Source of the DNA: Leptolyngbyaceae cyanobacterium
GTDB taxonomy: Bacteria > Cyanobacteriota > Cyanobacteriia > Phormidesmidales > Phormidesmidaceae
Reading direction: 5' to 3'
Length of the DNA: 64,000 bases
Assembly: GCA_965263355.1 (NCBI GenBank)
Contig: CBDHHL010000032.1
Span: forward strand, 448,001-512,000
The position numbers and the translations under genes are program-made. Each line of letters begins with the position of its first letter. Position 1 is the stretch's first letter. The notes under the pieces were generated by a model, which saw nothing but the letters and a program-made list of their open reading frames with translations, ran no database searches and was not told the DNA's origin. Shown piece by piece: positions 17,914 to 53,131 of this stretch.

Positions 17914-18051
17914 GGGACTGGTTCCGCCTGATGGGATGATTCAGCCAAAATGCTTGTAATGCAAGGGATACAGACGTTTTAGAAGAAGCTCGCTCAAATC
18001 GTTACTCTATAGGCCTTTCAGGCATTTTTCCCATTACACGGAACCAGTGCC
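17914..18051. mobile_element. ~138 bp MITE with ~23 bp imperfect terminal inverted repeats
   Basis: GGGACTGGTTCCGCCTGATGGGA ... TCCCATTACACGGAACCAGTGCC; no clear TSD. Confidence 0.7.
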
Positions 18052-18070
18052 CCCCCTTTTGCTTGGAGCT

Positions 18071-18761
18071 ATGTTGTCAAAACTTAAACTCGGACAAAAA
18101 TTTACCCTGATGCTGCTGGCCGTCTTTTTAGGCGGCATCCTGATGAGCGGTATTGCCCTATCCAAGCTGCTCAACTATACAGCCCAAGCAAAGTTAACCA
18201 ACAAAGCACTGATGCTGATGGAAACCATGAACTCCGTGCGTCAGTATACCGTTGAGGAGGTGAGACCAGAGTTAGCAGACCGTAGCGAAACCGAGTTTTT
18301 GCCAGAAACCGTCCCCAGCTACTCAGCCCATAGGGTGTTCGCAACACTCCAGGCCAGCCCAGATTACCAAGACTTCTTCTATAAAGAAGCCGTTCTTGAC
18401 CCCACGAACCCCAAGGACCAGGCCGATGAGTTTGAAATAGAGCTAGTGAACTCGTTTCAGCGTGAAATTCGCGAAGAATTACATGGGTTTAGAAATGTGT
18501 GTTTACAGGGTGTTTGCCCTTGCCATCTTTCTAGTTAACTTCTGGCTCAAACGCTATGTGGTGCGTCCTATAAACCGTATGGCTGCCACTGCAGAGGCCG
18601 TCAGTACTGGCGATACCCAAGCTGAATTTGTCAAATGGTCCGATGATGAGGTGGGTAACCTGACTGATTCGTTTAACCGTATGCGTCTGAGTTTGCAGAT
18701 GGCCATGCAGCGGTTAGAGCGCCATCGTCGTAAGCGTAAAGGGAGTCCAGGGGCAGGTTAA
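18071..18761 (+). pseudogene. DUF3365 (Tll0287-like)/HAMP protein gene with internal deletion and frameshift
   Basis: Similar to the N-terminus of 53132..56068 (ETVP.Y.A, YKEA.L.P.NP.DQAD.FE); CxxCH segment missing; TM/HAMP continues in another frame from ~18500. Confidence 0.8.
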
Positions 18762-18888: not shown

Positions 18889-20464
18889 TCATTTTGTCTT
18901 CACGCTAATCTCACTGCGTAGCTCTTTGCGAAACTCTTGGGCCTTTGCACCATCTGGAATTTCTCTAGCTAACCGGTCAACAAACCTGGGCGGACTCAGG
19001 TCTGGATAGTCCGCCAGGGTATCTTCCACAATCATGCTGGCCATGGGACCAATACAATGAGCCAGGGCCTGACGACAGCGAGTAATCAGCTCAGGCGTTA
19101 ACCCTTGCTGACGTTGTTGCAGTACGGTGTTAATCTCAGGCATTGTGTCGCTGGCGGCCAATGCTTCATCTGGGATACAAATGTGGCTTAAAAAGACCGT
19201 GGCCTGATCGGCGTCGGATATTTGTCCTGCTAGAATTTCAACAATTTCCTGGGGAGTTGCATGGGGATTGTCCTCTAATGTTTCTTCGATTACCATGTCG
19301 GCAATGGGGCCGATGCAGCGGCTAAGTTCATCACGACATTGGGCAATATAAAGACGGATCGGGTCGAGAGACATCTGCCTGCTTGGGAAGAACTGCGGCT
19401 GCAGGAAGGGGCTGAATAGGGGTGAGAGTTTTATTAAAGTCTTTAGGCAGTAACGGTGTGAGCCGCTCGAACACCTCCTGGGCAGATTGAAATCTATCCA
19501 GGGGCTGTTGCCGAGTCATGGTGGCTATAATTTTCCCCAGCTTTGGATTAATCTTTGCATGGGGTGTCCAGTCCATGTCCAGGGTATGCGAGTCCATTAG
19601 ATCGCGGGGATGCTTGCCTGTGAGGAGGACCAGCGCTGTTACTCCAAGGGCATATAAATCACCAGAGGGGGCGCATTTGCCAAACATTTGTTCTGGCGGG
19701 GAATAGCCAAATTTGCCGACGGCGGTTAATGCCTTTTGTGGAGTTTCATTCTGGGTCACTATGTCTGATAAGGAGTCAGACATAGTGTTGTTGACCAGGC
19801 CAAAGTCGATTAGGACAGGGAGGTTGCGATCGCGAGAATACATCACATTCTCAGGTGAAATATCGCGATGCATAATGTTTAGACTATGCAAGTAATCCAA
19901 CACCCTTAGCATATGGGCTAACCAGACGATCACCTCAGCTTCAGTGAACACCTTAGACTGCTTTTTGCGCTGCTGGAGCAGTTTTAGGTAGGTGACTCCG
20001 TTAATGTATTCCTGCACGATAAACAACCGTTTCGCCTGGGTAAAACAGGCCATAAACTTAGGAATTTGCGGATGGTCAATGCTGTGGAGCGTCTTTGCTT
20101 CCCGCTGAAACAGTTCAATCGCTTTTTTTAAGAATTTGCTTTGTTTTTGAATCGGGCGTAGCTCCTTGAGGACACACAGTTCACCAAACCGCTGGGTGTC
20201 TTCCGCCAGATACGAAAAGCCAAATCCACCCTGTCCTAACATCCGTTTGATGGTATAGCGCCCTGCTACTTTAGTGCCCTCAGCTAGCACTGGCGTTGGT
20301 GTTTGGGAGGCCGTTTGAACAGACGGCTGCCAATGTTTTGTTTTTTGTGCGTCAGTTGTAGCAACAGATACGGACATGCGGGCACTAAAGCCAACCGCAT
20401 CAGTCACAACAATAGCGGCTAGAGCACGCTGTCCTCGGCTAGGGGTGGGAAGGTCGCTGGGCAT
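18889..20464 (-). pseudogene. Ser/Thr kinase gene with a remnant adenylate-cyclase N-terminus and a frameshifted C-terminal repeat domain
   Basis: Kinase motifs (GQGGFG, HRDISPEN, DFG) in 19331..20464; N-terminal LAAIVVTDAVGFS matches the start of a class III cyclase; duplicated CR..L..CIGP.A domain in 18889..19374 joins if 1 nt is removed near 19350. Confidence 0.7.
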
Positions 20465-20957: not shown

Positions 20958-21815
20958 ATGGACACACAGAACCTGAGCCGAATTATCGACACCGCCTGGG
21001 AAAACCGTAGTTCGATCAATTCCAGTACATCAGGCGAAACCCGTGATGCCATTGAATATGTAGTTAACGGTCTCGATAGTGGCCAGTATCGTATTTGTGA
21101 AAAATCAGGTGATGGCTGGAACGTCAACCAATGGCTAAAAAAGGCCGTACTGATGTCCTTTCGCCTGAATGACTCCACCGTTATTTCTAGCGGTTTAACC
21201 TATGCCGAAATGGGTGACGCTCCCTGGTTTGATAAAGTCCCTTCCAAGTTTTCCGGTTGGACCCAAGAGGACTATGCCCAAGCCGGTTTTCGTGCCGTAC
21301 CCAACTGCGTCGTCCGCCGGGGATCCTACGTTGCCAGTAACGTGGTGCTGATGCCCAGCTTTGTCAATATCGGCGCATACGTTGACAGTGGCACCATGGT
21401 AGACAGCTATGTCACTGTCGGCTCCTGTGCCCAAATTGGCAAAAACTGCCACCTATCTGCAGGGGTTGTCATTGGTGGTGTACTGGAGCCTATACAGGCC
21501 AACCCCGTCATCATTGAAGACAATGTCTTTGTCGGCGGCCAAAGCGAAGTTTCCGAGGGGGTCATTGTTAGAGAAGGAGCGGTGTTAGCCATTGGGGTGT
21601 ACCTAAGTCAGTCCACCAAGATTGTTAACCGCGACACAGGCGAGATTACCTATGGTGAGATTCCCCCATATTCTGTTGTTGTACCTGGAGCATTGCCTGG
21701 TAAGCCCCTAGCTGATGGGACCCCTGGCCCTAGCTTATATTGCAACGTAATTGTCAAGACTGTGGATGACAAGACCCGGTCAAAGACATCGCTCAACGAG
21801 TTGTTGCGAGATTAG
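20958..21815 (+). CDS. dapD: DapD-like tetrahydrodipicolinate N-acyltransferase (divergent)
   Basis: [56 protein letters not shown]. Confidence 0.9.
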
Positions 21816-21866
21816 GTTGAACCTGAAACAGTCTGTTTAGGAAAACTAATTTCTAACTAGTTCAAT

Positions 21867-21960
21867 CTCCCCTCTCGGGCGGGGTGCCTAGAGGGCGGGG
21901 TGGGTTGGCCGATAGCGCTCAATTTCGAAACCCACCCCGAAGCCCCTCCCAGGAAGGGAT
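21867..21960. repeat. GC-rich palindromic dispersed repeat between dapD and the aminotransferase
   Basis: TCCCCTCTCGGG...GGGGTGGGTT...AACCCACCCC...CCCCTCCCAGGAAGGGA. Confidence 0.55.
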
Positions 21961-21998
21961 GAATTATCGCCTAATGCATTCACTTTAAAGTCTAAATA

Positions 21999-22898
21999 AT
22001 GTCTCTTTTCCCCTTCGACCAAAAGGACGGATATCTGTGGCTCAACGGTGAAACCGTTGTCTGGAAAGATGCCAAAATTCATCCCTTGACCCACGGTCTC
22101 CACTACGCCAGTAGCGTTTTTGAAGGCGTTCGCATCTATAATGGCAAACCATTTTTACTGGCTGACCATATCGAGCGACTGCACCAGTCCACCAAAATTT
22201 TGGGCTTTGAAATTCCCTATTCCACAGATGATATTATTGCCGCTACCCACGATCTGCTCGCTAAAGAGTCCATTGATGTAGGGTATATCCGCCACTTTTC
22301 CTGGCGTGGTAGCGAACGCCTGCGGATTTATGCACCAGACACGTCCACCTGTGTAGCCATTGCCGCCTGGGCGTTTCCCACAACGTTATTTAGCATTGAG
22401 ACCAAGAAACCTTTAAAGCTCACTAGCCAGATTTCCTGGCGTAAGCCTGATCCAGCGACAGCACCTACCGTCAGTAAAGCTGGCTGTCTATATCCTATCT
22501 GCTTTATGAGCAAGCATGAAGCAGTCCAGCAAGGGTTTGATGATGCTCTAATGCTGGACTATCGAGGGCTGATTGCCGAGTCTACCGCCTCCAATGTGTT
22601 TCTGATTATGGATGGAGCTGTGCATACACCGATTCCAGACTGTTTCCTTAACGGCATTACTCGTCAAACAATTCTTAAGCTGGCAAAACAGCTTGGTATT
22701 CCTACTGTTGAGCGCCATATTAAACCAGAGGAACTAGCGCAGGCCCAAGAGGTCTTTTTAACTGGGACAACCTGTGAAATTGAGTCGATTAGCCAGATTG
22801 ATCAGCAGACATTTGCACCGTTTGGCCCAGTGACCATGCGTTTAATTGGGGCCTATAGGGACTTTGTAATGGAGCAAACGGCGGCAGTCGGTTTGTAA
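21999..22898 (+). CDS. Class IV PLP aminotransferase (IlvE-like, divergent)
   Basis: HGLHYASSVFEG, H..RL, catalytic K in SKAG, DALMLD, LNGITRQT, EVFLTGT. Confidence 0.9.
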   Translation: MSLFPFDQKDGYLWLNGETVVWKDAKIHPLTHGLHYASSVFEGVRIYNGKPFLLADHIERLHQSTKILGFEIPYSTDDIIAATHDLLAKESIDVGYIRHFSWRGSERLRIYAPDTSTCVAIAAWAFPTTLFSIETKKPLKLTSQISWRKPDPATAPTVSKAGCLYPICFMSKHEAVQQGFDDALMLDYRGLIAESTASNVFLIMDGAVHTPIPDCFLNGITRQTILKLAKQLGIPTVERHIKPEELAQAQEVFLTGTTCEIESISQIDQQTFAPFGPVTMRLIGAYRDFVMEQTAAVGL

Positions 22899-22942
22899 GG
22901 TTTGTACAATATCTAATCACTCTTCAAAAGAATTTCATTTCT

Positions 22943-24145
22943 ATGTCCGTTAGTACCGTCACTACCCCTATTTTCGATCCCGTAAACGTCACCCAAGAAC
23001 TTATCCGCTGTCCCAGTGTCACTCCCGACCGAGAAGGGGGCTTAGACGTGGTCCAACGTCACCTGGAATTGTTGGGCTTTACCTGTCACCGCATGACCTT
23101 CCACAATGAGCCAGGTAGTTATGAGGTAGACAACCTCTATGCTCGCCTGGGTACTGAGGGGCCAAATCTAGCCTTTGCGGGGCACACTGATGTAGTGCCT
23201 GAAGGTAATCGTGAGCGCTGGGGAGATATTGACCCCTACAAGGGAGAAATCCGAGACGGTATTTTGTGGGGGCGGGGGACTGTCGATATGAAAGCGGGTA
23301 TCGGCTGCTTTATTGCAGCTGTTTCATCGTGGCTGGCTAAGAACAAAGACAGCTTTGACAGCTTTAAAGGCTCGTTTAGTTTCATTATTACCGGCGATGA
23401 AGAACACGAGGCCATTAACGGGACCAAACCGGTAATGAGATGGTTAGAGGCACGAGGCGAGAAACTAGATGCCTGTGTTGTGGGTGAACCAACTAATCCT
23501 CTGGAAATGGGAGACTGTGTTCACATTGGCCGACGGGGTAGTATCAACACGTTTATTACGGTTAAGGGCAAGCAGGGACATGTGGCCTATCAGCGAAATG
23601 TGCTAAACCCGGTGCCTGCAGCAGTGGCGATGGTAGCTGCCCTGCAGAATCTAACGTTAGATCAGGGCAACGAATGGTTTGAACCGTCGAATCTGGAAAT
23701 GACCCAGTTTGAGACGGCCAAATGTGCGGAAAATGTGATTCCGGCTGAGGTGAAACTGCGGTTCAATATTCGCTTTAATGATGAACAAACGGGCGAAGGG
23801 TTACAACAGTTGATTTGTGAAACCGTTGACCCGATTGCCCGTGACCATGGCACCGAGTACGATATTCGCTTTCGAGTAAGTGGTGAAGCATTTCGTACCG
23901 ATCCACAAGATACTTTTGTAGCCTTGGTACAAGACGCTGTTGAAGAGATTGCTAACCGACGACCCAGGCTAAGCACAGAAGGCGGTATCACCGATGCCCG
24001 GTTTCTGGTTACCCACTGTGTGACTGTCGAGTATGGGCCGTTGGATAACACAATGCATCAGATTGGTGAGCATATTCCCATTGCCCATATTCATGAGCTG
24101 CACCAGGTGTACGAGCGAATTATCGACAAGTTTTTTGCCGATTAA
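22943..24145 (+). CDS. dapE: DapE-like M20 acyl-diaminopimelate deacylase (divergent)
   Basis: CPSVTP, AGHTDVVP, GRG.VDMK, TGDEE, GEPT, GRRGS, QGHVAY, NVIPA, NIRFND. Confidence 0.88.
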   Translation: MSVSTVTTPIFDPVNVTQELIRCPSVTPDREGGLDVVQRHLELLGFTCHRMTFHNEPGSYEVDNLYARLGTEGPNLAFAGHTDVVPEGNRERWGDIDPYKGEIRDGILWGRGTVDMKAGIGCFIAAVSSWLAKNKDSFDSFKGSFSFIITGDEEHEAINGTKPVMRWLEARGEKLDACVVGEPTNPLEMGDCVHIGRRGSINTFITVKGKQGHVAYQRNVLNPVPAAVAMVAALQNLTLDQGNEWFEPSNLEMTQFETAKCAENVIPAEVKLRFNIRFNDEQTGEGLQQLICETVDPIARDHGTEYDIRFRVSGEAFRTDPQDTFVALVQDAVEEIANRRPRLSTEGGITDARFLVTHCVTVEYGPLDNTMHQIGEHIPIAHIHELHQVYERIIDKFFAD

Positions 24146-24215
24146 TTTCTATGGGCACCTTTGGGGGATCAATGCAAAGCGGAACGATTTTCGCAAAAAT
24201 ATAGACTATCGGAGT

Positions 24216-24277
24216 ACTCTGCAAGAAGAACAAAGCTCTACGGAACACTCTGCGAGAAGGGCAAAGCTCTACGGAAT
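24216..24277 (+). repeat. Two tandem 31 bp repeat units
   Basis: ACTCTGCAAGAAGAACAAAGCTCTACGGAAC / ACTCTGCGAGAAGGGCAAAGCTCTACGGAAT. Confidence 0.75.
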
Positions 24278-32068: not shown

Positions 32069-32147
32069 TTATGCGGGTTCAGTTGTTAGTGCACATACGA
32101 TCAAAAATCACTTGCTAGTATTCTAGAGGTTTATTGTGGCGGTCATA
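32069..32147 (+). repeat. ~78 bp imperfect direct repeat, copy 1
   Basis: GTTCAGTTGTTAGTGCACATACGATCAAAAATCACTTGCTAGTATTCTAGAGGTTTATTG; copy 2 at 34229. Confidence 0.85.
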
Positions 32148-32175
32148 CTTAGGGTTCAGTGGGGAGGTGAGGTCA

Positions 32176-32811
32176 GTGGATAAAGTATTTGTAAAAACCT
32201 TTTTAAAGCTTTGTTTAGATCAGCAAATTCAACAGATGCTTGATAAATCTTACAAGAACTATCATGTCAAGGGCTTCAATAGCATTATTCTCTCTTGTTC
32301 ACAGAACTTAACTGTAAGATTGTATGTTTGTCAGCCAGGTGAAACAGAGTTAAATCCAAACAACGATAACATTTTAGTCCATAATCACAGTTTTGATTTT
32401 CAAACCCAGGTTTTGACGGGGTATGTAGACAATGCTGTTTATGAAACATCCGACTTCGCAACAAAAGAAGGGATTTGGCATAAATATATCTATGAAAGTG
32501 CATTGAGAAGCAAAAAGCGAGAAATGAAGCTGACGTTCATTGAACAGACTAATTTAGAGCTGGTTGAAATTCAGCGAGTTGAGGCAGGATCATCCTATTT
32601 CTTAAATCATAAAAAATTTCATCGTATTTTTGTTCCTAATGATCGTTTGGTCTCCATGCTGTTTTGGCAGCATCAAAAAGTTGAGCAAACCCCTATCATC
32701 TTTAGCAAAATCCCACAGCCAGAAATTTTTCCAACAGACGGACTCTATCATCGTTTTTCTGGAGAAAACGAAATTCGTGATTTAGTTCATTTAATAATTG
32801 AGAGCTTGTAA
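32176..32811 (+). CDS. Hypothetical protein with cupin/cysteine-dioxygenase-like His motifs
   Basis: VHNHSFDFQTQVLTG ... GSSYFL...FHRI; GTG start after GAGG; stop overlaps the next ATG (TAATG). Confidence 0.65.
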   Translation: MDKVFVKTFLKLCLDQQIQQMLDKSYKNYHVKGFNSIILSCSQNLTVRLYVCQPGETELNPNNDNILVHNHSFDFQTQVLTGYVDNAVYETSDFATKEGIWHKYIYESALRSKKREMKLTFIEQTNLELVEIQRVEAGSSYFLNHKKFHRIFVPNDRLVSMLFWQHQKVEQTPIIFSKIPQPEIFPTDGLYHRFSGENEIRDLVHLIIESL

Positions 32812-33368
32812 TGCTACATTATGATTTCTGTTTGTGTATGGGGCGTTTTCAGCCCTTTCATGTAGGCCATTTTGATTTGGTACAAACGTCCTTAGAGAGG
32901 GGTAAACGGGTGATTATCCTTCTAGGCAGTCATCTAAGCCGCCAAACCCTCAGAAACCCCTGGATTTCTGAGGAACGAGAGCAGATGATTCAAATGTGTT
33001 TAAGCCCCACTGAACAGGCTCGGGTGGATGTAGTACCTATTTGTGATTACGAAGCTAATGAGGAATGGTCATCTACAATTCACAGGGAGGTTTACAGTAT
33101 TGCCGATTTTTCACATAAAATTGCTATCGTTGGTCACCATGATGGAGGGCAGAAATTTTTCTCTCAGTGGTTTCCTAAATGGAAATATGTTGAAAAATTA
33201 CGTCAGCCAAATCTCAATGCAACTGATATTCGCATTGCCTATTTTGGCGGACTTCCAGAAACTCACTACTGCCATAAGCTACCCGCTGGAACATTGGATT
33301 ATTTGAGAGAGTTTAAGACGCAATCAATTTATCAGCAGCTTTGCTCAAAATATAAAGAACAAGAATAG
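32811..33368 (+). CDS. Cytidylyltransferase-family NadM-like adenylyltransferase without a Nudix domain
   Basis: GRFQPFHVGH, RNPW..EER..MI, FPKW, NATDIR. Confidence 0.85.
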   Translation: MLHYDFCLCMGRFQPFHVGHFDLVQTSLERGKRVIILLGSHLSRQTLRNPWISEEREQMIQMCLSPTEQARVDVVPICDYEANEEWSSTIHREVYSIADFSHKIAIVGHHDGGQKFFSQWFPKWKYVEKLRQPNLNATDIRIAYFGGLPETHYCHKLPAGTLDYLREFKTQSIYQQLCSKYKEQE

Positions 33369-33487
33369 AGGTAGTTTAGTTTTGACTTTTGCATTACTGT
33401 CGGGTACAGAATCCGATTACTATATTTGCTGGATTGCATATAACATATATAACTATCATTTCCTGTCACTGTGACTGAAGCAGCCAT

Positions 33488-33568
33488 AGCATAACAACGA
33501 CGATAGAGCGGATAGAAAATCATGCCTAAGAGTTTAATATTGTTTTCTGCCACTCATCTTCATTAGGC
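33488..33568 (+). other. Degenerate integron attC-like site
   Basis: GCATAAC (R''), GAGCGGATAGAAAA pairing imperfectly with TTTTCTGCCACTC, ending CATTAGGC (degenerate R'). Confidence 0.5.
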
Positions 33569-34159
33569 ATGTTTATGAATTTACACATCCGCGACATGGA
33601 TGCAGAGGATTTTGAATCTGTTTTCGAAATTAACCAGGAGTCAATGCTGAATGTATTTGAATTAAACGCAAATGAGTTTTTCCACCTGTTTGAATTATGC
33701 GAGTATGCAAAGGTAATCGAAATAGATCATAAGGTAGCAGGTTACATATTTGTACTGGGGAAAGGGCTGGAGTATGACGGAGAGGAATATAACTGGTTCT
33801 GTGAAAATTTAGGAAATGATTTCTTGTACATTGATCAGGTGGCTATAGGAGGAATATGGAGAGGAATAGGTTGTGGTAAAAAACTCTATAAAGACCTGGA
33901 GAATTATGCGGCTCGAAATCAAAAGAATGCGCTAGTATGCGAAGTTAATTACAAACCATTAAATCAAGACTCGATGGCCTTTCACGAAAGATTGGGGTTC
34001 AAAGAGATATCTCGTATGGAGACGCGCGGCATAATTGTGTCATTGCTAGTAAAGCAAAACATCTTGAATGATGCCCAAGTTAATCTGACTGATAAACTTG
34101 GTGGAAAAGCCATCTCAACGTGCAGAAGTAAACTTTTTATAGCAGCTGACTCCGTCTAA
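33569..34159 (+). CDS. GNAT family N-acetyltransferase
   Basis: FLYIDQVAI...RGIGCGKKLY, CEVN..PLN..S.AFHERLGF. Confidence 0.88.
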   Translation: MFMNLHIRDMDAEDFESVFEINQESMLNVFELNANEFFHLFELCEYAKVIEIDHKVAGYIFVLGKGLEYDGEEYNWFCENLGNDFLYIDQVAIGGIWRGIGCGKKLYKDLENYAARNQKNALVCEVNYKPLNQDSMAFHERLGFKEISRMETRGIIVSLLVKQNILNDAQVNLTDKLGGKAISTCRSKLFIAADSV

Positions 34160-34228
34160 CATTCGCAGAATCGGCCAGATTGAACATTCTGGAGTTAATA
34201 ACACAATGTTGACCGCCGCCCAGCTACG

Positions 34229-34304
34229 TTACGCAGTTCAGTTGTTCGGGCACATACAACCAAAACTCACTTGCTAGTATTCTAGAGGTTTATTGGTAGT
34301 CATA
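34229..34304 (+). repeat. ~76 bp imperfect direct repeat, copy 2
   Basis: GTTCAGTTGTTCGGGCACATACAACCAAAACTCACTTGCTAGTATTCTAGAGGTTTATTG. Confidence 0.85.
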
Positions 34305-34914
34305 ATGGGTGGCCATCCAACTGCAGTCGAAGCGCCAAACAGTCCAGCTCCCTGTCTGTCACAAGTCAAAATATCGGATATATTGCCGTCTTGGCAGACA
34401 TCATTGTGGCAACATTCCGCGAGAACTGTTCGGCAGACGATTTCAGTTCCCATGATATCCACCTAAACCCATAGCCTGGTGGCTGGAATGAAGAAGAGTT
34501 GGAAGGCTTATCTATTCTTTTTCTTCAATTGAAGGCGTTTTTCAAAGTGGCACTCGAAGCAAATAAAGTTACACTTTTATTCTCTATATATACCTGCTTT
34601 TCAACATTTTTTCAACATTCTCTATTCCAGTTCAAAGCTTTTGTCTGCGCCGTTTGAGAGTTTTGTATATTTTGGTCGATCATTTTTGTCTTGAGTTAGA
34701 CGATCAGTTGTTCTGTACTTGTAAAATTAAAAAAAATAAATTAAAGTAAAGCCTGATTTTTTATCTTTTTCTGCTATGGTTTTAAACGGCTTCGACACTA
34801 TTGCACTTGATGCTTGATAAGCAGTCTGCTTGCTTCTTTATGTATCTTGAGATCGCACTGCTGCAGATTATTATTAGCATTGTTCATTTTAGGTGGTAGT
34901 GAAACAAAGAAGTT

Positions 34915-36378
34915 GTGATGATAAGCAAACAAAAGATTATGAGTGGTGTAGACAGTTGGGTTTCCTCGCCTTATCATGAGCATTCGGAGCGTGCAGTAAA
35001 TGCAGATGAGCTTCGTGATGTATATATGCATTGGGCAAGTTCTTATGATGATGAAATGCTTGCTAACAATTTGCAGTCTTACAAATCGGTGACACAGGTT
35101 TCACTTGAAATGTTATCCAAAATGGACGCTCCCGTAGCAGGTAGGCCGTTACGTGTGATGGATGCTGGTTGCGGCACAGGACTCCTTGGACAGTATTTTT
35201 CAAAATCGCTCCAGGTAAGCGAACTCAAATCTTGCCAAGTTTATCTTGTAGGTGTAGACCTCAGCCCAGATATGCTACATATCGCAGAGAAAAAAGGCTG
35301 CTTCGATGAACTCCATGAGGGAAGCTTGAAAGATCTGCAGGCATTTGACGCATCCAGCTTTGATTTGATTATTTCCTCTGGTGTTTTCCTGGCAGGGCAC
35401 TGTGGTCCCGAAACGCTAACCCCCTTACTGAGTCACCTATGTCCGGGAGGATATGCGGTTTTCACGGTTCGATCATCCTTATTTCGAGAACATGAGGCAA
35501 GCTTTCTCTCCGCCATCACAGATGCTGGCTGCTCACTTCTGCAAGCGACCACGATGCCCTATTATGGGGAAATTGAAGCCCGCGTGCTGACTGTAAGGAA
35601 GCTATTGCATGAAGCTGATAATGAGCCATGGATGGCATGGAAGCAGCATTACGAAGCACAAGGCTTTGCCCCATTAGAGTTCAAAGCAGAGTCAGCCGAA
35701 CTCGCTGATTTTGATGCTTATATTGCCTCGCGTGTACAAGCGCAGCATCCCGGAAATATCTTTGATGATGAAGGCAATCTGCGGGCTGTTCATGGTTATG
35801 AACGGGGACTTATTTCCACACTCATGGCTAAACTTGCCAACCAGGCCAAAGGATTACTCGACTGTCGCTCTGTTTACCTCTATCAATTTCGGGTCAACTC
35901 TAAGCATCCCTCTCAGCAAGGCCGTGGCGGTTGGGCCCCTCATCGCGACTACGACTTTTGGCAAAGGATGGATGGTCTGCCATTGCCGCGATTAGTAGTT
36001 TTCCATATCTTTCTGACAGAGCAAACCTCAGATAATGGTGCGCTCGTCTTGTGTGACGGTAGCCACAAAGCCAATGTCGAACTATGTATTATCGATGATC
36101 AGGATTGGCGCGGAGGTTTTGGAGAAGTACTAAGCTATACGATCCCACCTGAGGCCTATGAAGATTGGTCGAAGAAAACACCGATGTTTGGCTCAGCAGG
36201 CAGTATCGTTGCTATGCATCCATTGACATGGCATGCCTCATCGCCCAATCGATCCAACGCCAATAGGGTAATTGCTTCAATAATTTTTAATGATCTCGAC
36301 AATCTGCCCAAGGATAAAGAAATGATGGGTAATCGCCCAGATTTTATAGTACATCGTCCTGATCAGTATGTCTGGTGA
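34915..36378 (+). CDS. Fusion of a class I SAM methyltransferase and a PhyH/EctD-like Fe(II)/2OG dioxygenase
   Basis: VMDAGCGTG, GVDLSPDML; WAPHRDYDFW..MDG.P, DNGAL, GSH, WHASSPN...R. Confidence 0.85.
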   Translation: MMISKQKIMSGVDSWVSSPYHEHSERAVNADELRDVYMHWASSYDDEMLANNLQSYKSVTQVSLEMLSKMDAPVAGRPLRVMDAGCGTGLLGQYFSKSLQVSELKSCQVYLVGVDLSPDMLHIAEKKGCFDELHEGSLKDLQAFDASSFDLIISSGVFLAGHCGPETLTPLLSHLCPGGYAVFTVRSSLFREHEASFLSAITDAGCSLLQATTMPYYGEIEARVLTVRKLLHEADNEPWMAWKQHYEAQGFAPLEFKAESAELADFDAYIASRVQAQHPGNIFDDEGNLRAVHGYERGLISTLMAKLANQAKGLLDCRSVYLYQFRVNSKHPSQQGRGGWAPHRDYDFWQRMDGLPLPRLVVFHIFLTEQTSDNGALVLCDGSHKANVELCIIDDQDWRGGFGEVLSYTIPPEAYEDWSKKTPMFGSAGSIVAMHPLTWHASSPNRSNANRVIASIIFNDLDNLPKDKEMMGNRPDFIVHRPDQYVW

Positions 36379-41536: not shown

Positions 41537-41606
41537 ACTTGGTTCACGTCCAGAACTGTAGTCTTGCTGTAGAGAAAACTCCAGGTTTCAACTTGGACGT
41601 GGTTTA
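41534..41606 (+). repeat. MITE-like family A copy filling the gap between two convergent genes
   Basis: TAAACTTGGTTCACGTCCAG...GGTTTCAACTTGGACGTGGTTTA; both ends coincide with TAA stop codons. Confidence 0.8.
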
Positions 41607-42155
41607 GAAATCATCCAACACATCAAGATCAATATCCTCATCTTCAAGCATGTCGGACAGGGATGTTGGATTAGCATCAATGGGCTTAGGCGATGTTATG
41701 TTTTCAAACATAGCTTCATGGGCTTGGGCCGAGTGGCCATTGGTCGAGTGGCCATTAGTTGAATGGCCGTTAGCCGAGTGGCCATTAACTGACGCATAGT
41801 CATTATTTGAAGCGGCTGCGCCCCCTCCTCCCAGGGATTCACTCAACTTGGGCCCGTAGGCCTCGCCAGTTAAAAAATGTCGTCGGATCTGAAAAATTCT
41901 AAACTCCAGTTCGTCGATGGCATTGCGAGCTATTACTTGGGCTTCTTCTTTGGAGACATCGTCTTCATAGGCCCAAGGTAGATAGTAGGCTTTCAGTGCC
42001 CGCACGACCGACTCTCGCATGTTCACCATTTTGTTGTCGCGCAGATAGTTAACGATGCGCCCTTCAACGGTGTCAGGGTCAGAACTAATGCTAAAAGAAA
42101 CGCGTTTTCTGGTGGCAGGTACTTCTTTCTTAGGGGTGCTTTTCTTTTTAACCAT
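41604..42155 (-). CDS. Hypothetical protein, ParR-like partner of the actin-like ATPase; contains 15 bp (NGHSA/T) tandem repeats
   Basis: Start overlaps the parM stop by 8 bp; basic N-terminus with beta-strand RVSFSI then helices; acidic tail. Confidence 0.6.
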   Translation of the reverse strand: MVKKKSTPKKEVPATRKRVSFSISSDPDTVEGRIVNYLRDNKMVNMRESVVRALKAYYLPWAYEDDVSKEEAQVIARNAIDELEFRIFQIRRHFLTGEAYGPKLSESLGGGGAAASNNDYASVNGHSANGHSTNGHSTNGHSAQAHEAMFENITSPKPIDANPTSLSDMLEDEDIDLDVLDDF

Positions 42156-43263
42156 GACTCTTCCCCGCAGCAACTTTTTGGAACTTTAATGCCAGCCACT
42201 TTGCCCCACCATAACAGTCACAGAACCGTAACTGATCGATGTCTGCTTCTATCTCTAGATTGGCGGCGACTTCGTCCTGCAAATCTTCCAACCAGTTAAC
42301 GGTACAAAAGGTAGAGCGCTCTTCAAAGTATTCTTCTAACTCGTCCTCTAACTGGCTGGCTGTTCCACCACTAATCAGAACTTCATAGTTAGGCACACTA
42401 ACTGACGCTAGCCATTCATTCAGGCGATATTTCACTAGCTCCCAATAGTAGGCGGTGGCTTTTTCCTTACGGTCTGCTAGGGGATACGCTTTTTTAGGAC
42501 GATTGGGAAAGACGACTCGAGCTGAATTGTTGATCAAGGCATCATAGAGAAATGGATCGTCTGAATTGCAAGGCAGATCTTGGGCAACGGCTTTTAACAG
42601 TTGCTGATAGCCAAGGCGTTCAGTACTACTGGGTTCTCCCTGGGGCGGACGGCCACCGTTAAATAGCAAAAAACTCAGATCTCTATGGCCAAACATCAGC
42701 ACGACAAAGGTCTGTTTAGAGCGTTCTTTTTGTTGCGATCGCTGCACCTTGCGCCACTGTACTAAACCCGCCGCCTCAGGTAACACTTTCACATGGCCAA
42801 AGTCTAGAAAAATATCCCGACCGCGATAGGTAAACATCTTATGGCCCAGAATTTCATTGGTAAGGGCCTTATAGTCCGTCAGGTATTCATTAAACGGGAG
42901 GGCAATACCCACATCCAATGTCAGCCGTTCCAAATCATGCTGATGGGCAAACTCACCAATCACCCCCAGTGCCCGAATATGGGCCAGAGCACTTTTGGGT
43001 AAACTGCTGGTGGCCTTATTAGGGCGACCTTGAGCGTCGATACCCAAGGCGTAAGCCGGGGTCTCTGGATCGAGCTGTAGATAGCCGACTGATTCTAGGC
43101 CAGAGCCTATTTGTTCACCCTGCGCTTCAATAATGGCTAGCTCAGAAGGGGGCATATCCGCCACTAGAGGAGGGCACTGATAGGCATAGAACCGTTCGCC
43201 GTTATTAAGGACGGCCTTTGTGCCAGAGCTACCTAAATCGATAAAACATTGATATTTGGCCAT
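42148..43263 (-). CDS. ParM/StbA-family actin-like ATPase
   Basis: IDLGSSGTK phosphate-1, ALPFNEY, LPEAAG connect-1, MFGHRD, SGGT adenosine motif. Confidence 0.85.
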   Translation of the reverse strand: MAKYQCFIDLGSSGTKAVLNNGERFYAYQCPPLVADMPPSELAIIEAQGEQIGSGLESVGYLQLDPETPAYALGIDAQGRPNKATSSLPKSALAHIRALGVIGEFAHQHDLERLTLDVGIALPFNEYLTDYKALTNEILGHKMFTYRGRDIFLDFGHVKVLPEAAGLVQWRKVQRSQQKERSKQTFVVLMFGHRDLSFLLFNGGRPPQGEPSSTERLGYQQLLKAVAQDLPCNSDDPFLYDALINNSARVVFPNRPKKAYPLADRKEKATAYYWELVKYRLNEWLASVSVPNYEVLISGGTASQLEDELEEYFEERSTFCTVNWLEDLQDEVAANLEIEADIDQLRFCDCYGGAKWLALKFQKVAAGKSHG

Positions 43264-44293: not shown

Positions 44294-45287
44294 GGTAGTC
44301 CATTTTAGTAAAGGTCAGAGAAAATTAGGGGGTGAGCAGAGTCAATCAATCTCTCCCTAACCAATCGGTTGTACTCGTGGATGAAGGTCCAAATCGCACC
44401 ACTGTGGTTCTCCAGCTTATTCGAGAACGACAGTGGGTATCGCACCAGGCACGATACCCACTGTCGTAGCGTGTTGTTCAACCGCTCAATATAACTGGTT
44501 AATCCGCTATCTTTGTCCACCGCAAAGTGACGATTGCTTGGAATGATCGTTTCGTAAGCGTCCCAATGATCAGTGTAGACCTTGGCACACTGTCGGTAAA
44601 CACCGGGTAAGGATTGCCATAATTGCAGGACCGATGCCCGTGAACGGTCTCCGATATGACATCCCAGAATTTCTCTAAGTAGGTAGGCAAAATAACTTAC
44701 ACAAGAACTTTTCAAGGATGACACTTTTGAAAAGGCCCCCAACCCCCAATTCTGGGGGGCTTCGGAACTTAAAGTCCCCCAGAATTGGGGGATTTAGGAG
44801 GCTTCCAGGATTTTGAAATTAATTGTGCTCATCTATTTAGTATCTGCATCCGTCACCGGCCAGACCCACTGCTTATTGTCTTTGTCATCCAACAAACGAC
44901 CACAGTTCGTCTATCTGCACCGTCAGCTTGCCCTTGGGCTTAGGTACTACCGACGCACTTTCTTGGGAACCGTCGCATAGGTAGCGTTAACGTATGCTTG
45001 GAGCCATCGCTCTGAAACCTGGGTGACTCGGGCGATACCAGCCAATGGAATCTTCTCAAGCAGTAGCAAGTCGACCAAGCCAAAGGTGTCTTTATCTTTA
45101 GGTTTCCACTGAGGGTCTTCGACAAACTGTCGCCCTCAGTCCTTGCATTTGTAGTTCTGCTTGGCACGACGAGTCAGACCGTTTTTGATAATGTCATGGG
45201 AGCCGCAAGTCAGACACGTCATTCCCGTTTATTTGAGATCCTTTTGGGATTTTAAAGGCTAAGTCTGATATCTGATGCACCACTTAC
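44294..45287 (-). mobile_element. Degenerate IS1-family element (insA/insB pseudogene)
   Basis: MTCLTCGSHDIIKNG...KQNYKCKD zinc finger; YTDHW..Y, IERLNNTLRQ, LSFS; ends GGTAGTCC / GCACCACTTAC; frameshifts and stops. Confidence 0.85.
44676..44839. mobile_element. ~160 bp MITE inserted in the IS1 insB gene, TA target duplication
   Basis: TA|AGTAGGTAGGCAAAATAA...TTAATTGTGCTCATCTATT|TA; removing it restores DADTREILGCHIG. Confidence 0.8.
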
Positions 45288-45803: not shown

Positions 45804-48206
45804 TTAAGAGACTGTCTCGGGTTGCCAATAGGCTGCCCGGATAACAACCCAAAGTAACGCTAAGTGATAGCATCCCCATCCAACATTGACCAGGTATGTT
45901 AAGGGATCTGGCCATTGTCCTAAAATTAGCTGTATTAGTCCCCACAGCATACCTGCAATAGTAAGGGTAAAAACAATTAACTGTATGCGTACAAGCCCCC
46001 AAAACACCCCAGATTTTCGTTGCTTGGGTGTAACCTTAAATGAGACTTTTTTACCAGTCAAAACACTCCAAACAGCCTGAATTTGCAATGGAAAAAGAGC
46101 GATAGCATATTGTTCATTACGCCATATTTCTTGTTTGGGCACTTCCCATGCTGCAGCCAGTAAGTTAAGACGGTTAATCAGATAAGTTGGGGCAAAGTGT
46201 AGTATAAATGCTGGGCCATAACTAGTCACAGGGCTAAGCCCTGTAAAGAATGAAATAATTGGGCAGACTAAAAAGATAATTACAAAAAAGCCTGCAAAAT
46301 AGCTGTACATCGTCTGAAAATACTGAAGCCGTTGCCAGAATGTGAGACCTGACTTGAATAAAGGATTATCTCTGACTAGTACCTGTATGGTTCCTTGAGC
46401 CCAGCGTAATTTTTGGGTTAGCGTGGAACTGAGGTCGTCAGGGGCAAGTCCCTCTGCCAAAACTTCATGGTGATAAACAGATTGCCAGCCAGCTGAATGG
46501 AGGCGCATCGCTGTATTCATGTCTTCTGTAATACTAATGCTTGAGACTCCACCAATTAGATCAAATTCATCCAATCGGCTTTCATCAGCTGCAAAATCAT
46601 CAGCAAAATGCTGCAATCCCATACTCACCAACGCTTCTCGTCGTAAAATTGCATTAGTTCCGGTATAAAAGGCGGCATTCATGCCATCCTTAGCTTGTTG
46701 AATAGGGCCATAGAAAAAATGAGCGTCATGGCCAAAGGGATCACCTTTAGGTAAGTTGTAAAATGCCTGAGGAGTCTGCACAAAGGCAACTTTATTTAAC
46801 TCATAGCGCCCTTGATCCAAATTAAAGTGGAAAAAGTTAGGCAGTACCCGCTGCAAAAATTGCGGCTTAGGAATATGGTCTGCATCTAAAGTAACAATAA
46901 AGTCACCCTGGGTTTCACCACAGAAAATAGCATGGTTAATATTCCCTGCTTTAGCATGGTGAGGACGATCTTTAGGCTTTTTGCGGGCAATGTAGCGACA
47001 ACGAGCTAAATCACTTAAAGCAAAGGTTTTCTTATCAATTTGTGCCTCTAACTTACGAATATTTGCTTCCAGCATTGCAGTTGCAGTAGAGTTTTCTGAC
47101 TGACTGAGTAACAGCAGCTGTCGTAGGCTTTGTATGTGCCCTTGAGTTTGCCAAGATTTCGAGTCTTCTAAGGAATCCTTTGAAACAAATTTCTTAATCA
47201 TTATCAGACAGTTGCGATCATCGGGATCACGGACATATGCCAAATGATCTGCAAGCTGTCTCAAAATGCTGATGCCACGACCACGTTCTGCATCTTGATC
47301 AATTTCATCCGGTAGTGTTTGCAAATGTTTCTCAAAATCAAAGGGAGCACCTCGATCCCAAATTCGTATGATAATTGCGAAGTTAAGAATGACGACTTCT
47401 AAATCGATCGGAGTCTCTGATACCAGATGCTTGTGGGCATGACTGACTACATTATCGAATCCTTCACCTAATAAGGTTTGAGCTGAAAACCAAGCATCGT
47501 CAGGGATTATAGACTGTTTTAGGGTGCTAAACCAATCCATGATTGACTCTAATTCATTAAAATCGGTTTTCACTCGAATTTTTTGACAGCTGAGATTCTT
47601 TTCTACAGTTTCTAAATCCTGTCGTAGATACTGTATTTGCTCTAGACGGCTGCTTAAATAATAGCGTTCAGCCTCTATCTGTTCAGCTGTGAGCTGTAAG
47701 GCAGGTGACTTAAGGTCTAGAAGACAGAGTTGTTCTGCCATAGCTCGCATATCCGGAGAATTTCCATCATCCAGTATATAAATCCGCAGCTTATTGGCAG
47801 GATAGGCCATCTTTAAAGCCGATTCCGCCGTTTCTTTGACAATGTCAACGGGCTCACTATAACAAGTGATAAAAATATCAACAGTTGGATAGTTAGCTTT
47901 CGGTAACGTTGGGGTGAGTTGATCAAGGTTTTTGACCCGACGCTCAATCGGTCGCCATAGCCCAACTAAAAAAAGTACGCCGCCAACGAACATGTATACT
48001 TCAGCTAATACCAGCGGCACTGAAAACCAGAGAGCATCTGTATTGAGGGACTGAGTTAACCGCCACTGCAAATACCATGCACCAACAATTAGATTTACTA
48101 AAACCAAGTAACGAAAAAGTAAGGTGCGATCGCGCAAACGCACTTGGATATTGTTCATCAGTGGTTTCTGATCCAGCTGACTAATAAAGCTACTCATTAT
48201 CAACAA
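45804..48206 (-). CDS. Cellulose-synthase-like processive GT2 with an inserted RsbW-type HATPase domain and no PilZ domain
   Basis: DDG, HAKAGN, DADH, QTPQ, GTN, TED, QKLRW, FKVTPK; insert contains EGFDNVVSHAH, IWDRGAPFD, ERGRG. Confidence 0.9.
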   Translation of the reverse strand: MLIMSSFISQLDQKPLMNNIQVRLRDRTLLFRYLVLVNLIVGAWYLQWRLTQSLNTDALWFSVPLVLAEVYMFVGGVLFLVGLWRPIERRVKNLDQLTPTLPKANYPTVDIFITCYSEPVDIVKETAESALKMAYPANKLRIYILDDGNSPDMRAMAEQLCLLDLKSPALQLTAEQIEAERYYLSSRLEQIQYLRQDLETVEKNLSCQKIRVKTDFNELESIMDWFSTLKQSIIPDDAWFSAQTLLGEGFDNVVSHAHKHLVSETPIDLEVVILNFAIIIRIWDRGAPFDFEKHLQTLPDEIDQDAERGRGISILRQLADHLAYVRDPDDRNCLIMIKKFVSKDSLEDSKSWQTQGHIQSLRQLLLLSQSENSTATAMLEANIRKLEAQIDKKTFALSDLARCRYIARKKPKDRPHHAKAGNINHAIFCGETQGDFIVTLDADHIPKPQFLQRVLPNFFHFNLDQGRYELNKVAFVQTPQAFYNLPKGDPFGHDAHFFYGPIQQAKDGMNAAFYTGTNAILRREALVSMGLQHFADDFAADESRLDEFDLIGGVSSISITEDMNTAMRLHSAGWQSVYHHEVLAEGLAPDDLSSTLTQKLRWAQGTIQVLVRDNPLFKSGLTFWQRLQYFQTMYSYFAGFFVIIFLVCPIISFFTGLSPVTSYGPAFILHFAPTYLINRLNLLAAAWEVPKQEIWRNEQYAIALFPLQIQAVWSVLTGKKVSFKVTPKQRKSGVFWGLVRIQLIVFTLTIAGMLWGLIQLILGQWPDPLTYLVNVGWGCYHLALLWVVIRAAYWQPETVS

Positions 48207-48509
48207 AAAATAATTATGTAAGTGACTCTAGGTTCTCTAAATTAATTGCCTCTATATTTCCATGACTCTCAAGCTCTTGAATCACATTAAGATTGAAAGT
48301 CAATTCCTAGTAATGGCAGCAGTAGACGCCTAAGTTAACAATCATTTGTGGGGCAGTACTAATGAGTTTTCCCGTTAGTCTAAATGGATGAACAATATTA
48401 CTTTATTAACCCCTAGAACCATAATGTTTTATTATCTGATGAGGTTGTAGACATCATTATTAAGCCTTTTACTCAGAAGACTGGTACGCCCCATGAACAT
48501 GGGCAATGC

Positions 48510-50246
48510 TTAACCATTGTCACCGATCAATAAACCAATAAGTCCAATGAGCGAAGCATTATAGTCGATAGCATATTCATTCGTTGCATACGACTTCTCA
48601 TCATCTAAGTAACTCAATATACCTAAGCCTTTTGGAGCAATATTATCTTGAGCATCAGAATTCGGACCTCCAACGACTAGACCAGGAATCAGTAAGCCTT
48701 TAGCACGGGCAAATAGATGGTTTACATGACGTACTGGACGAGCCCCAATACCTGTCACAAAAGTTTGATTAAAAGGATTACGACCTAGTAAGAAATGAAG
48801 CTGATCTAACGCAGCAATTTGGTAACGCTGATCCTGACTAATCTGGTATGCATAGACTAGGGTAATCCCCTCTTCTGCTGCCAGTTTATTAGAGCCCCAG
48901 ATAAAACGATGATTGGCTAAGCGGTAACCGTTATTTTCGACCCTCGCTAGAATCTCATTAGCTCTTTCTAGTAACTTTTTGTCAATGATGGCTTGAAACT
49001 CTCGTGAAATAGGCTGCCGCTGCTGCAATCGGTAATCTACTAACGCTAACGGTGATAAATTTTTCCATTCAAATAAGGTATAGGGGATCTTGGGTAAATA
49101 GAGTTCTACATACTGTTGGTATTTTTTAGCTCCAGTTGAAATATAGAGTTCTGTAGCTGCCCAGAAACGGTCATCAATATCAGTGTTAAGACTCTCTTCT
49201 TGATCAATATCTGAACCCAAGTATTTTCCTGAACCGCTATCATCACTTTCGATCCAATCAACCTGCATAGTAGATTGATTCTCCAAGTATTGCCAGGCTA
49301 GGTTTGCAGCGGTTTGATATTGATTAGCAAGGTTAGAATCAAATGTTTCAAAGACTCGGGCGGCCATGGCCATGACACCAGCAAACTTACCTGTTTCAGG
49401 GGTAGAAATCCCATAGATATAACGAATTTGTCGATCTTCATCAGGTGCTAATCCAATGGGCCATTCTGTTCCAGAAAGTTTTCGATAGACACCCCCATCG
49501 GACCGCTGCATCCTTAACATCCAGTCCAGTCCAAATTTCATTTCATCTAGAATATCGGGAGTGCCGTTACCGCTTTCTGGAATTGTCAATTGTCTATCCC
49601 AAAATAGACTGGGATTTTGTTCATAAAGACTCAGAATACGGGCAATCGTTGTCGCAGTTGTGGCAACATACTTGCCATAATCTCCTGCATCATGCCAGCC
49701 TCCTGTTGCGTCGATTTGATCGCTTGCTTGGTGTAAGTCATCGGCACGAGCTAAGTTGTGATCGTATAAGTGACAAGGAGCGTGGTACAAACCTGTAATA
49801 GGATCGTCTAGAATGACGCCACAACGTTGTAAATAATAAGATCTTAGCAATGATATAAATGTTGCTTGGTATGCATTAGTAGAAATACTAAATGGAGCAG
49901 ACTCTACAGAACCTGCTCGGACTAAGTATTCTCCAGGTTGCCGGAAATCACTCAAGTCAACGGATTGCAAGTTATCTCCACTCAGATGATCAGCCTGTAC
50001 TACAGTAGGTGTATCTAGTTCACTTATCTGTCCATCAGTTAAGCTAACCAACTCCAGAGGGATACTCTTAGGAGCATTGGCTAAAAAGACAACTTTTGGC
50101 CATTGTGGATGATATCCCACTTGGTTTAATAATACTTTCATAGGAGATTTCGGAGACTGAGCTTGCCCTGAAAATTTTGTACTACAAGCAATAATTAGAA
50201 AAATTGCAATGGTTGTTAAAATTAGGAGTTTATAAATACGTTGCAT
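48510..50246 (-). CDS. GH9 endoglucanase with Ig-like domain, putative lipoprotein
   Basis: NQVGY, YYLQRCG, GGWHDAGDYGKY, DD..WA, GRNP, TNEYAIDYNA; IIAC lipobox-like. Confidence 0.92.
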   Translation of the reverse strand: MQRIYKLLILTTIAIFLIIACSTKFSGQAQSPKSPMKVLLNQVGYHPQWPKVVFLANAPKSIPLELVSLTDGQISELDTPTVVQADHLSGDNLQSVDLSDFRQPGEYLVRAGSVESAPFSISTNAYQATFISLLRSYYLQRCGVILDDPITGLYHAPCHLYDHNLARADDLHQASDQIDATGGWHDAGDYGKYVATTATTIARILSLYEQNPSLFWDRQLTIPESGNGTPDILDEMKFGLDWMLRMQRSDGGVYRKLSGTEWPIGLAPDEDRQIRYIYGISTPETGKFAGVMAMAARVFETFDSNLANQYQTAANLAWQYLENQSTMQVDWIESDDSGSGKYLGSDIDQEESLNTDIDDRFWAATELYISTGAKKYQQYVELYLPKIPYTLFEWKNLSPLALVDYRLQQRQPISREFQAIIDKKLLERANEILARVENNGYRLANHRFIWGSNKLAAEEGITLVYAYQISQDQRYQIAALDQLHFLLGRNPFNQTFVTGIGARPVRHVNHLFARAKGLLIPGLVVGGPNSDAQDNIAPKGLGILSYLDDEKSYATNEYAIDYNASLIGLIGLLIGDNG

Positions 50247-50294
50247 AATCTTGGGAGTAAAGTATCGTCCTGAGACGCATTTGACTTGGTAAAT

Positions 50295-50460
50295 CCTGAC
50301 TTTTCCTGCTAAGTCCTATGACCGCCCAATATCAAGGATCTATAATCAGATTTTTCTCAATAAGGTTGATTTATTGAGAATAGCTCACGAGCTGATAGGG
50401 GTTTCACGTAGCGAAAATCGGGCAGATTTTTAGCTCCAAAAGATAACGGGAAAAGTCAGG
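50295..50460. mobile_element. 166 bp MITE with 12 bp TIR and 6 bp target-site duplication
   Basis: GTAAAT|CCTGACTTTTCC...GGAAAAGTCAGG|GTAAAT. Confidence 0.85.
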
Positions 50461-50486
50461 GTAAATCAATACATTTTACTGTGAAT

Positions 50487-52907: not shown

Positions 52908-53029
52908 AGAACGCTGACCTTTCTTCCTTAAGAATTCTGCTGTATTTTTCTATGTAAAAATATAACTTGTTTAAAGATACAAAAGGTGCGTAATTCTCCT
53001 AAATATTAGTAAGAATATAAGGATTTTGT

Positions 53030-53067
53030 TGAATGCTTTATCAGTGATTTAACTGATAAAGCGTTCA
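53030..53067. terminator. Hairpin downstream of the hybrid kinase
   Basis: TGAATGCTTTATCAGT ... ACTGATAAAGCGTTCA. Confidence 0.6.
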
Positions 53068-53131
53068 CTCTATGAGAGTCTAAACCTTGATTTTGTGTGA
53101 CTAAAATATTCCCACAAAGCTAATCCCTGTT

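Follow-up and report, generated by a model that had tools for sequence, protein, structure and literature searches.

A dapD–class IV aminotransferase–dapE module as a very likely replacement for DapL in several cyanobacterial lineages

The window analyzed here is a stretch of 64,000 nt of contig CBDHHL010000032.1 (assembly GCA_965263355.1), from a Leptolyngbyaceae cyanobacterium. It contains a dapD gene, a gene for a class IV aminotransferase (AT) and a dapE gene (hereafter the trio; Table 1), three open reading frames that share one orientation and are not interrupted. Cyanobacteria are described as converting tetrahydrodipicolinate (THDP) to LL-diaminopimelate (LL-DAP) with the single enzyme DapL (parts of PMC7133116 and PMC4176475), and the trio, a conserved and mobile module of three genes, is very likely a stand-in for DapL. 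The DapD and DapE products score over the cut-offs of their families, and the score of DapD against the acetyltransferase family TIGR03532 is 105.9 bits, under the cut-off of 231.75. The best NCBIfam match of AT is the branched-chain aminotransferase (BCAT) PRK07544, with 372.7 bits and under the cut-off of 396; it also falls just under that of ilvE_I (243 bits; cut-off 245.55) and reaches 126–134 bits with models for D-amino-acid transaminases (cut-offs 277–320). The reading frames and the family scores agree with the original prediction, which described three intact, co-oriented genes with a class IV enzyme between dapD and dapE. An in-frame GTG at 20925 is an alternative start for dapD and would add 11 aa.

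Table 1. Features of the dapD–AT–dapE locus; positions are those of the window.
Feature	Position	Strand	Description
dapD	20958-21815	+	285 aa; NCBIfam TIGR00965, 385.9 bits (cut-off 375.4)
spacer dapD-AT	21816-21998		GC-rich hairpin, z -2.1; no Rfam match
class IV aminotransferase (AT)	21999-22898	+	299 aa; Pfam Aminotran_4; IlvE-like
dapE	22943-24145	+	400 aa; NCBIfam TIGR01246, 384.3 bits (cut-off 361.8)

The trio is preceded in the window by a gene for a Ser/Thr kinase and followed by genes for a P450 and an aldo-keto reductase and by rpiA; the flanking genes match Leptolyngbya PCC 7375 and related Leptothoe/Adonisia loci, and statements at the genome level rest on such relatives of the window's organism (Leptothoe, Adonisia and others). 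Among 14 cyanobacterial AT loci, dapD lies immediately 5′ of the AT gene in 13, the contig of the fourteenth beginning 157 bases before AT, and dapE lies immediately 3′ in 11; of the other three, one is at a contig end and two have dapE elsewhere in the genome (G005 and G046 keep dapE apart from AT). The order of the genes is not due to chance, because this adjacency recurs across the 14 loci. A fifteenth locus retrieved in the AT search, with a 37% identical actinomycete IlvE and no trio, was set aside. The dapE gene of Adonisia turfae CCMR0081 (L007, 8948-9985) is broken by an assembly gap of Ns and not by mutation. The hairpin in the spacer between dapD and AT is probably not part of the mechanism, since the length of the spacer differs among relatives; scans for Rfam families, promoters and terminators yielded no signal over chance. 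A 31-nt tandem duplication is found directly after dapE, at 24210-24271.

The occurrence of the trio is complementary to that of dapL. Among 172 genomes of the host family, in which DapL was counted by passing its cut-off, we found DapL in 134, dapD in 21, dapE in 20 and AT in 19, with dapE and AT occurring solely inside the 21 dapD-positive genomes; the two dapD genomes without AT have contigs that stop just past dapD. DapL was found in none of the 21 dapD-positive genomes vs. 134 of the 151 others, and adding G004, a carrier from a second family, dapL is missing from all 22 trio carriers. This speaks strongly for the variant route that had been suggested from the sequence of the window; the trio is also conserved, its genes falling in these 21 genomes plus G004. 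In the second family DapL is present in 55/61 genomes and G004 is among the six negatives, in the other five of which dapD was not found; a class-wide sample yielded dapD in 3/401 genomes, each an already known carrier. A Fisher p of 6e-17 for the mutual exclusion of dapL and dapD was not used as evidence, since the test takes genomes with shared ancestry to be independent. Contigs were also mapped onto the dapL–rpoC1 stretch of a relative, with an identity floor of 80% that dapL from other genera, being only 70–73% identical, does not reach; the three runs used were mixed communities. Extra copies of the DapL family over the cut-off occur in G580 (two), G590 and G583.

In a tree built from the rpoC1 of 80 genomes out of the 172 (18 with the trio, 7 with neither route and 55 with dapL), the trio fell at four separate points, namely the Leptothoe clade (support 1.0), G129, G160/G162 and G034; G004, from another family, brings the number of lineages to five. 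Taking dapL to be missed at a background rate of ~0.1, we estimate that the chance of five lineages all being without dapL is ~1 in 100,000. G129 is nested among dapL genomes, with G157 as its sister (support 0.97); they have six flanking genes in common to one side and four to the other, and in between G129 carries the trio, in the same orientation, where G157 has dapL. Seven relatives (G011, G012, G014, G018, G022, G025, and G030) have dapL behind a nitroreductase gene, and in G160 and G162 it is the trio that is found behind this gene. The trio therefore occupies the dapL slot in two of the five lineages, and the location of the copies from Leptothoe, G034 and G004 could not be tied to this slot. 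Complementary distribution and a common slot were thus both found, as for a non-orthologous replacement of DapL. No dapL remnants were found beside the trio by tblastn or blastn, and homing via such remnants was dropped.

The remaining genes of the pathway were searched for in five trio genomes at a time, in sets that differ from search to search: dapF, lysA, argD and native ilvE were each present in 5/5, and ddh in 0/5. A second dapF-like gene occurs in G003. The best DapL-like match in the trio genomes is a class I paralogue that fails the DapC_direct model (493, under 593) and whose best family is the aspartate aminotransferase PRK05942; comparable secondary class I matches are also seen in dapL-positive genomes, and class I paralogues remain a rival source of LL-DAP. 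All considered, we hold it highly probable that the trio is the diaminopimelate (DAP) route of its carriers.

Four variants of DAP synthesis, the succinylase, acetylase, dehydrogenase and DapL pathways, are described in the available text of PMC4176475 and PMC8396482. In the route that we propose, the trio would be a housekeeping acyl route having displaced DapL. DapD, a tetrahydrodipicolinate N-acyltransferase of proteobacterial descent and a predicted acetyltransferase, would acetylate, not succinylate, the ring-opened tetrahydrodipicolinate substrate; AT, a predicted N-acyl-2-amino-6-oxopimelate aminotransferase, would aminate the C6 ketone with L-stereochemistry instead of DapC; and DapE, a di-zinc deacylase predicted to act on N-acyl-LL-DAP, would take off the acyl group to yield LL-DAP, from which the retained DapF and LysA would produce meso-DAP for peptidoglycan and then lysine. 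Every enzymatic assignment in this route is our inference, set beside what was observed, that is, gene identity, complementarity with dapL, the slot in two lineages, phylogenetic affinity, selection and residue changes. With its three parts together, replacement of DapL, an acetyl donor and a class IV AT in the DapC role, this is the reading that we favor, with moderate confidence.

The acyl donor was approached through the residues of DapD, given here in E. coli numbering, which is that of structure 1kgq. Three positions separate the cyanobacterial clade from its relatives: 163 (V171 here), with V in 39/39 clade members vs. G in 81/81 relatives; 187 (Q195 here), with Q in 39/39 vs. R in 81/81; and 160 (A168 here), with A in 38/39 vs. 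G in 81/81. Four annotated DapH proteins and two solved acetyltransferases contain A160, V/I163 and N187; the clade has A160, V163, V182, and A203 in common with DapH, as well as an uncharged amide at 187; the changes T142S, W143Y, A186G, and M204I are not DapH-like. Residues G163 and R187 are reported, in work by Beaman from 2002, to be those that determine the succinyl specificity of DapD. The residues that bind the acceptor in the E. coli enzyme (R104, R112, M124, N129, M139, D141, S148, L168, and E169) are all unchanged, and the changes cluster nearby. DapD is only 27–31% identical to DapH vs. 59–68% to succinyltransferases, and has the proteobacterial N-terminal domain, while an approximately unbiased (AU) test did not reject its joining DapH (p 0.28; long branch). 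The succinate contacts of P. aeruginosa DapD (E221, R223, G238, and S241, from a portion of PMC3281039) map, by the range offset, to around E. coli positions 141–163, a placement that is only approximate.

Cyanobacteria are without 2-oxoglutarate dehydrogenase, and Synechocystis probably obtains succinyl-coenzyme A (succinyl-CoA) through SucCD (PMC7133116, in part). We surveyed possible sources of succinyl-CoA in draft genomes, so that results are to be read as "not found." The cyanobacterial-type SucC (succinyl-CoA synthetase beta) was detected in 2/172 genomes of the host family (G171 and G172; L313 and L314), neither of them a trio carrier, and therefore most of the family may be without succinyl-CoA altogether. 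The E1 component of 2-oxoglutarate dehydrogenase was found in 0/5 genomes and CoA transferase in 0/5, and the 2-oxoacid:ferredoxin oxidoreductase, methylmalonyl-CoA mutase, and acetyl-CoA hydrolase/transferase family were found in 0/21 each. With no source of succinyl-CoA found, a succinylase pathway would lack its substrate in these hosts. Residues and genome content together suggest that the donor is probably acetyl-CoA; another non-succinyl donor is considerably less likely, and succinyl-CoA itself is unlikely.

DapE keeps its metal ligands and catalytic residues (H81, D115, E153, E154, E182, H372, and H213) and shows clade-fixed changes from K to H at 194 and from TS to IT at 349–350; in terms of the A. 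baumannii enzyme, K176 is H and T326 is I in 11/11 clade members. Part of PMC10809365 describes the residues through which the A. baumannii enzyme contacts succinate, as well as the action of DapE on an L,L substrate.

The pocket of AT has been rebuilt on the side-chain side. Using the pocket definitions of PMC8320979 (its Table 2), placed by alignment to solved BCATs, we found that the L-type carboxylate site, or P-pocket (G43, R45, Y96, R98, G256, and T257), is invariant in 50/50 clade members, as are the pyridoxal phosphate (PLP) lysine K160 and residues E194, Y36, F41, and Y165. The side-chain pocket now contains H99, R109, Y111, F126, T129, C163, P166, T258, and C259, and the beta-turn reads GTTC, not GTAA, so that the hydrophobic O-pocket of IlvE is replaced. 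R109 occurs in 50/50 clade members vs. 0/150 other rows, three of which have K, and C163, P166, T258, and C259 are also clade-specific. The fold predicted by AlphaFold (mean pLDDT, the predicted local distance difference test score, 79.8) is closest to BCATs; R109 cannot be placed in this model because residues 107–111 have a pLDDT under 50. A predicted complex of DapD and AT scored 0.00 and counts neither way. AT is additional to the native IlvE in 5/5 trio genomes, and the idea that it substitutes for a lost native IlvE was rejected. Because the L-type carboxylate pocket is kept while the side-chain pocket is rebuilt with a new arginine, AT is probably an L-selective substitute for DapC rather than a means of bypassing DapF. 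If the trio is the DAP route, it is quite probable that AT does the transamination; that the class IV enzyme replaces DapC, as originally proposed, is likely from the pocket changes and from its travel with dapD.

All three genes show an alphaproteobacterial affinity. The AT search retrieved 50 proteins at 72–100% identity, the named ones all cyanobacterial, the next being 53–58% identical; for DapD and DapE the cyanobacterial clade is likewise followed by sequences at 64–68 and 47–53% identity, respectively, the named ones being nearly all from Alphaproteobacteria. Each gene forms a single cyanobacterial clade on a long stem within alphaproteobacterial-type sequences; one of these trees was read for topology alone and its support values were not used, and one DapE labelled Phormidium willei sits among the alphaproteobacterial-type DapE sequences. 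AT groups with alphaproteobacterial IlvE (100/99) on a stem branch of 0.6 substitutions per site, and kinship with native cyanobacterial IlvE was rejected (p-AU 8.7e-5). The AT tree and the nearest named non-cyanobacterial relatives thus concur with the alphaproteobacterial resemblance noted at first. The AT sequences of G004 and G129, which belong to different families, are sisters (97/93), beside a Leptothoe sequence, and therefore indicate transfer between cyanobacteria. The GC and GC3 contents (all and third codon positions) of the trio equal those of host genes, so that base composition does not point to a recent transfer. No donor arrangement was seen, as neither dapD nor dapE was near ilvE in any of at least 80 outside loci from metagenomes, 31 of them with full 4 kb flanks. 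Median pairwise dN/dS values were 0.039 for DapD, 0.054 for AT and 0.037 for DapE (90, 38, and 37 unsaturated pairs, respectively, of 190), and all three genes are under purifying selection. Tentatively, and with somewhat less assurance than for the route itself, we envisage a succinylase cassette that was retooled for acetyl-CoA in hosts without succinyl-CoA, with a BCAT re-evolved, and that spread among marine cyanobacteria into the dapL position.

A number of observations weigh against the route proposed. The absence of dapL from the window's own host is inferred from 0/21 genomes of the host genus. Neither dapL nor dapD was found in 17/172 genomes of the host family, including 5/21 of the host genus (3.7–5.3 Mb); these 17 are G035, G043, G045, G050, G051, and 12 more. 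Their assemblies may be incomplete, or they may be auxotrophs or use a third route; incompleteness may account for some of them, as rpoC1 itself was missed in 13/172 genomes. The class I paralogue passes the LL-DAP aminotransferase subfamily PRK09276 (513, over 507), and ArgD is encoded elsewhere than in the trio in 5/5 trio genomes. The AT gene of the metagenome-assembled genome G048 (L013, 8001-8897) contains one in-frame TAG, at codon 260. As for the donor, alphaproteobacterial DapD and DapH differ at 37 core positions, of which the clade changed eight and is DapH-like at four; G004 carries sucCD but keeps the altered DapD; and DapE retains R197, H213, Y216, and G348, the equivalents of the succinate contacts of the A. 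baumannii enzyme as listed in part of PMC10809365.

Several of these points bear on a first alternative, in which the pathway is the same but succinyl, supplied by an undetected source, is retained as the acyl group, or a different dicarboxylic acyl, for example malonyl, is used; DapD would then have a new carboxylate site made up of Y151 and Q195. The position of DapD over the succinyltransferase cut-off and under that of the acetyltransferases would fit this, as would the succinate contacts kept by DapE and the four changes in DapD that are not DapH-like. However, the family scores mirror ancestry and not donor, the change G163V and the loss of R187 are seen in 39/39 sequences, and a succinyl-CoA source was not found in the genus; we consider this alternative rather unlikely.

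A second alternative, which we also find unlikely, concerns the middle step. The trio would replace DapL, but transamination would fall to the ArgD of the host or to one of the class I paralogues, leaving AT in a side role such as amino donor supply or by-product clearing. In E. coli the bifunctional ArgD does this transamination (PMC9309667, in part). Its presence in all five genomes, the likeness of an N-acetylated substrate to ArgD's own, and the stop codon in the AT of G048 would all agree with this, as would the literature, in that we found no class IV DapC in open full-text sources; nor did we find a report of the trio cassette there, with subscription papers and supplements outside the search. 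Against it, AT follows dapD directly wherever the contig reaches and accompanies it across five lineages, and it is under purifying selection with a rebuilt pocket.

Paralogues of dap genes serve secondary metabolism in tabtoxin-type clusters, and the trio could have a similar role, with LL-DAP coming from the retained class I paralogues. That paralogues over the PRK09276 cut-off exist, that 17 genomes have neither route, that all three active sites have changed and that a P450 gene adjoins the trio in the window are what such a role would lead one to expect. Nevertheless, the trio lies exactly in the dapL slot in two lineages, dapL is missing from all 22 carriers, the acceptor-binding residues of DapD are unchanged, and no ligase, synthetase or exporter accompanies the trio, the P450 gene itself being missing from several loci. 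A secondary-metabolism role, which the original prediction had also raised, is quite unlikely, because the genes stand where dapL stood.

Finally, a D-selective AT giving N-acyl-meso-DAP directly and bypassing DapF, also put forward at first, is the least probable reading and is not supported, because dapF is retained in 5/5 genomes and the L-type P-pocket is intact in 50/50 sequences, the fold and sequence neighbors of AT are BCATs and DapE is described as acting on an L,L substrate (PMC10809365, in part), even if fold type IV includes D-/R-selective enzymes that bind the carboxylate through an arginine of the O-pocket loop (PMC8320979, in part), where R109 lies, and the beta-turn is GTTC instead of GTAA.

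Compared with known systems, the trio shares with the proteobacterial succinylase branch the DapD and DapE families, their folds and catalytic residues and the order acylate, transaminate, deacylate; in contrast, its middle enzyme is of fold type IV, where theirs is a class I/II DapC/ArgD, its DapD lacks G163 and R187 and its host has no detected succinyl-CoA source. With the acetylase branch of Bacillota it would have acetyl chemistry in common, as predicted, together with the DapH-like A160, V163, V182, and A203, but its DapD is of other ancestry, its deacylase is of DapE type, in contrast to the N-acetyl-DAP deacetylase of that branch, and its aminotransferase is of class IV, whereas that of Bacillota is the class I enzyme PatA. 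The DapL pathway of cyanobacteria and plants has the same predicted input, THDP, and output, LL-DAP, as well as a common slot in two lineages; it is one class I enzyme instead of three unrelated enzymes plus acyl-CoA, and the two were never found together. Alphaproteobacterial IlvE (PRK07544) agrees with AT in fold, PLP lysine and alpha-carboxylate pocket, at the 53–58% identity given above, although AT is under the family cut-off and its side-chain residues and GTAA turn are replaced. D-amino acid and (R)-amine transaminases have lost the BCAT P-pocket that is intact in AT, with R109 on the loop leaving some doubt. The trio is likely a variant of the acyl branch that departs from the succinylase pathway in succinyl pocket and donor, and from the acetylase pathway in ancestry, with two unexpected traits, a class IV DapC and a switch from succinyl to acetyl. 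For this clade, the annotations succinyltransferase, BCAT and desuccinylase that databases carry are probably incorrect.

If the proposed route is correct, a whole genus and four other lineages would have exchanged DapL for a longer pathway, in a repeated in-place displacement of an essential gene, and lysine would be made by a route that does not draw on succinyl-CoA. The DapC step would be carried out by a fold-type IV enzyme whose change of specificity is traceable to ~10 residues, which would be useful for transaminase engineering, and DapD would offer a natural test of succinyl vs. acetyl specificity on the backbone of a succinyltransferase.

A dapD paralogue that keeps G163 and R187 was seen in Nonomuraea gerenzanensis (L316, 844-8381), followed by an aminotransferase-like gene; by inspection, the genes of this cluster resemble those for a TauD-type dioxygenase, a methyltransferase, LysA, DapD, an aminotransferase and an asparagine-synthetase-like protein, which suggests a secondary-metabolism cluster assembled from paralogues of dap genes.

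Other features of the window lie on both sides of the trio. The Ser/Thr kinase gene upstream of dapD (18889-20464, minus strand) is broken in comparison with its 692-aa orthologue from L003, with residues 38–189 absent and a frameshift at ~540, and the Tll0287-HAMP partner gene (18047-18761, plus strand) is split and without approximately residues 159–239 of a 320-aa orthologue. Downstream, a low-GC island (32134-36378, plus strand) encodes a 225-aa protein that matches nothing in Pfam, a cytidylyltransferase-like protein, a GNAT protein and a fusion of a methyltransferase and a PhyH-type dioxygenase. At 41604-43263 (minus strand), a gene for a 371-aa protein that has no match in Pfam and whose N-terminus is probably actin/ParM-like overlaps that of a 189-aa partner with low-complexity repeats, and positions 44305-44742 presumably hold a transposase-like fragment. 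A second low-GC cluster (45804-56068, minus strand) contains genes for a cellulose-synthase-like protein with an inserted, anti-sigma-like HATPase_c domain, a GH9 cellulase, a GH2 hydrolase and a hybrid histidine kinase, and is followed by a gene for a GH16 protein at 56292-57512.

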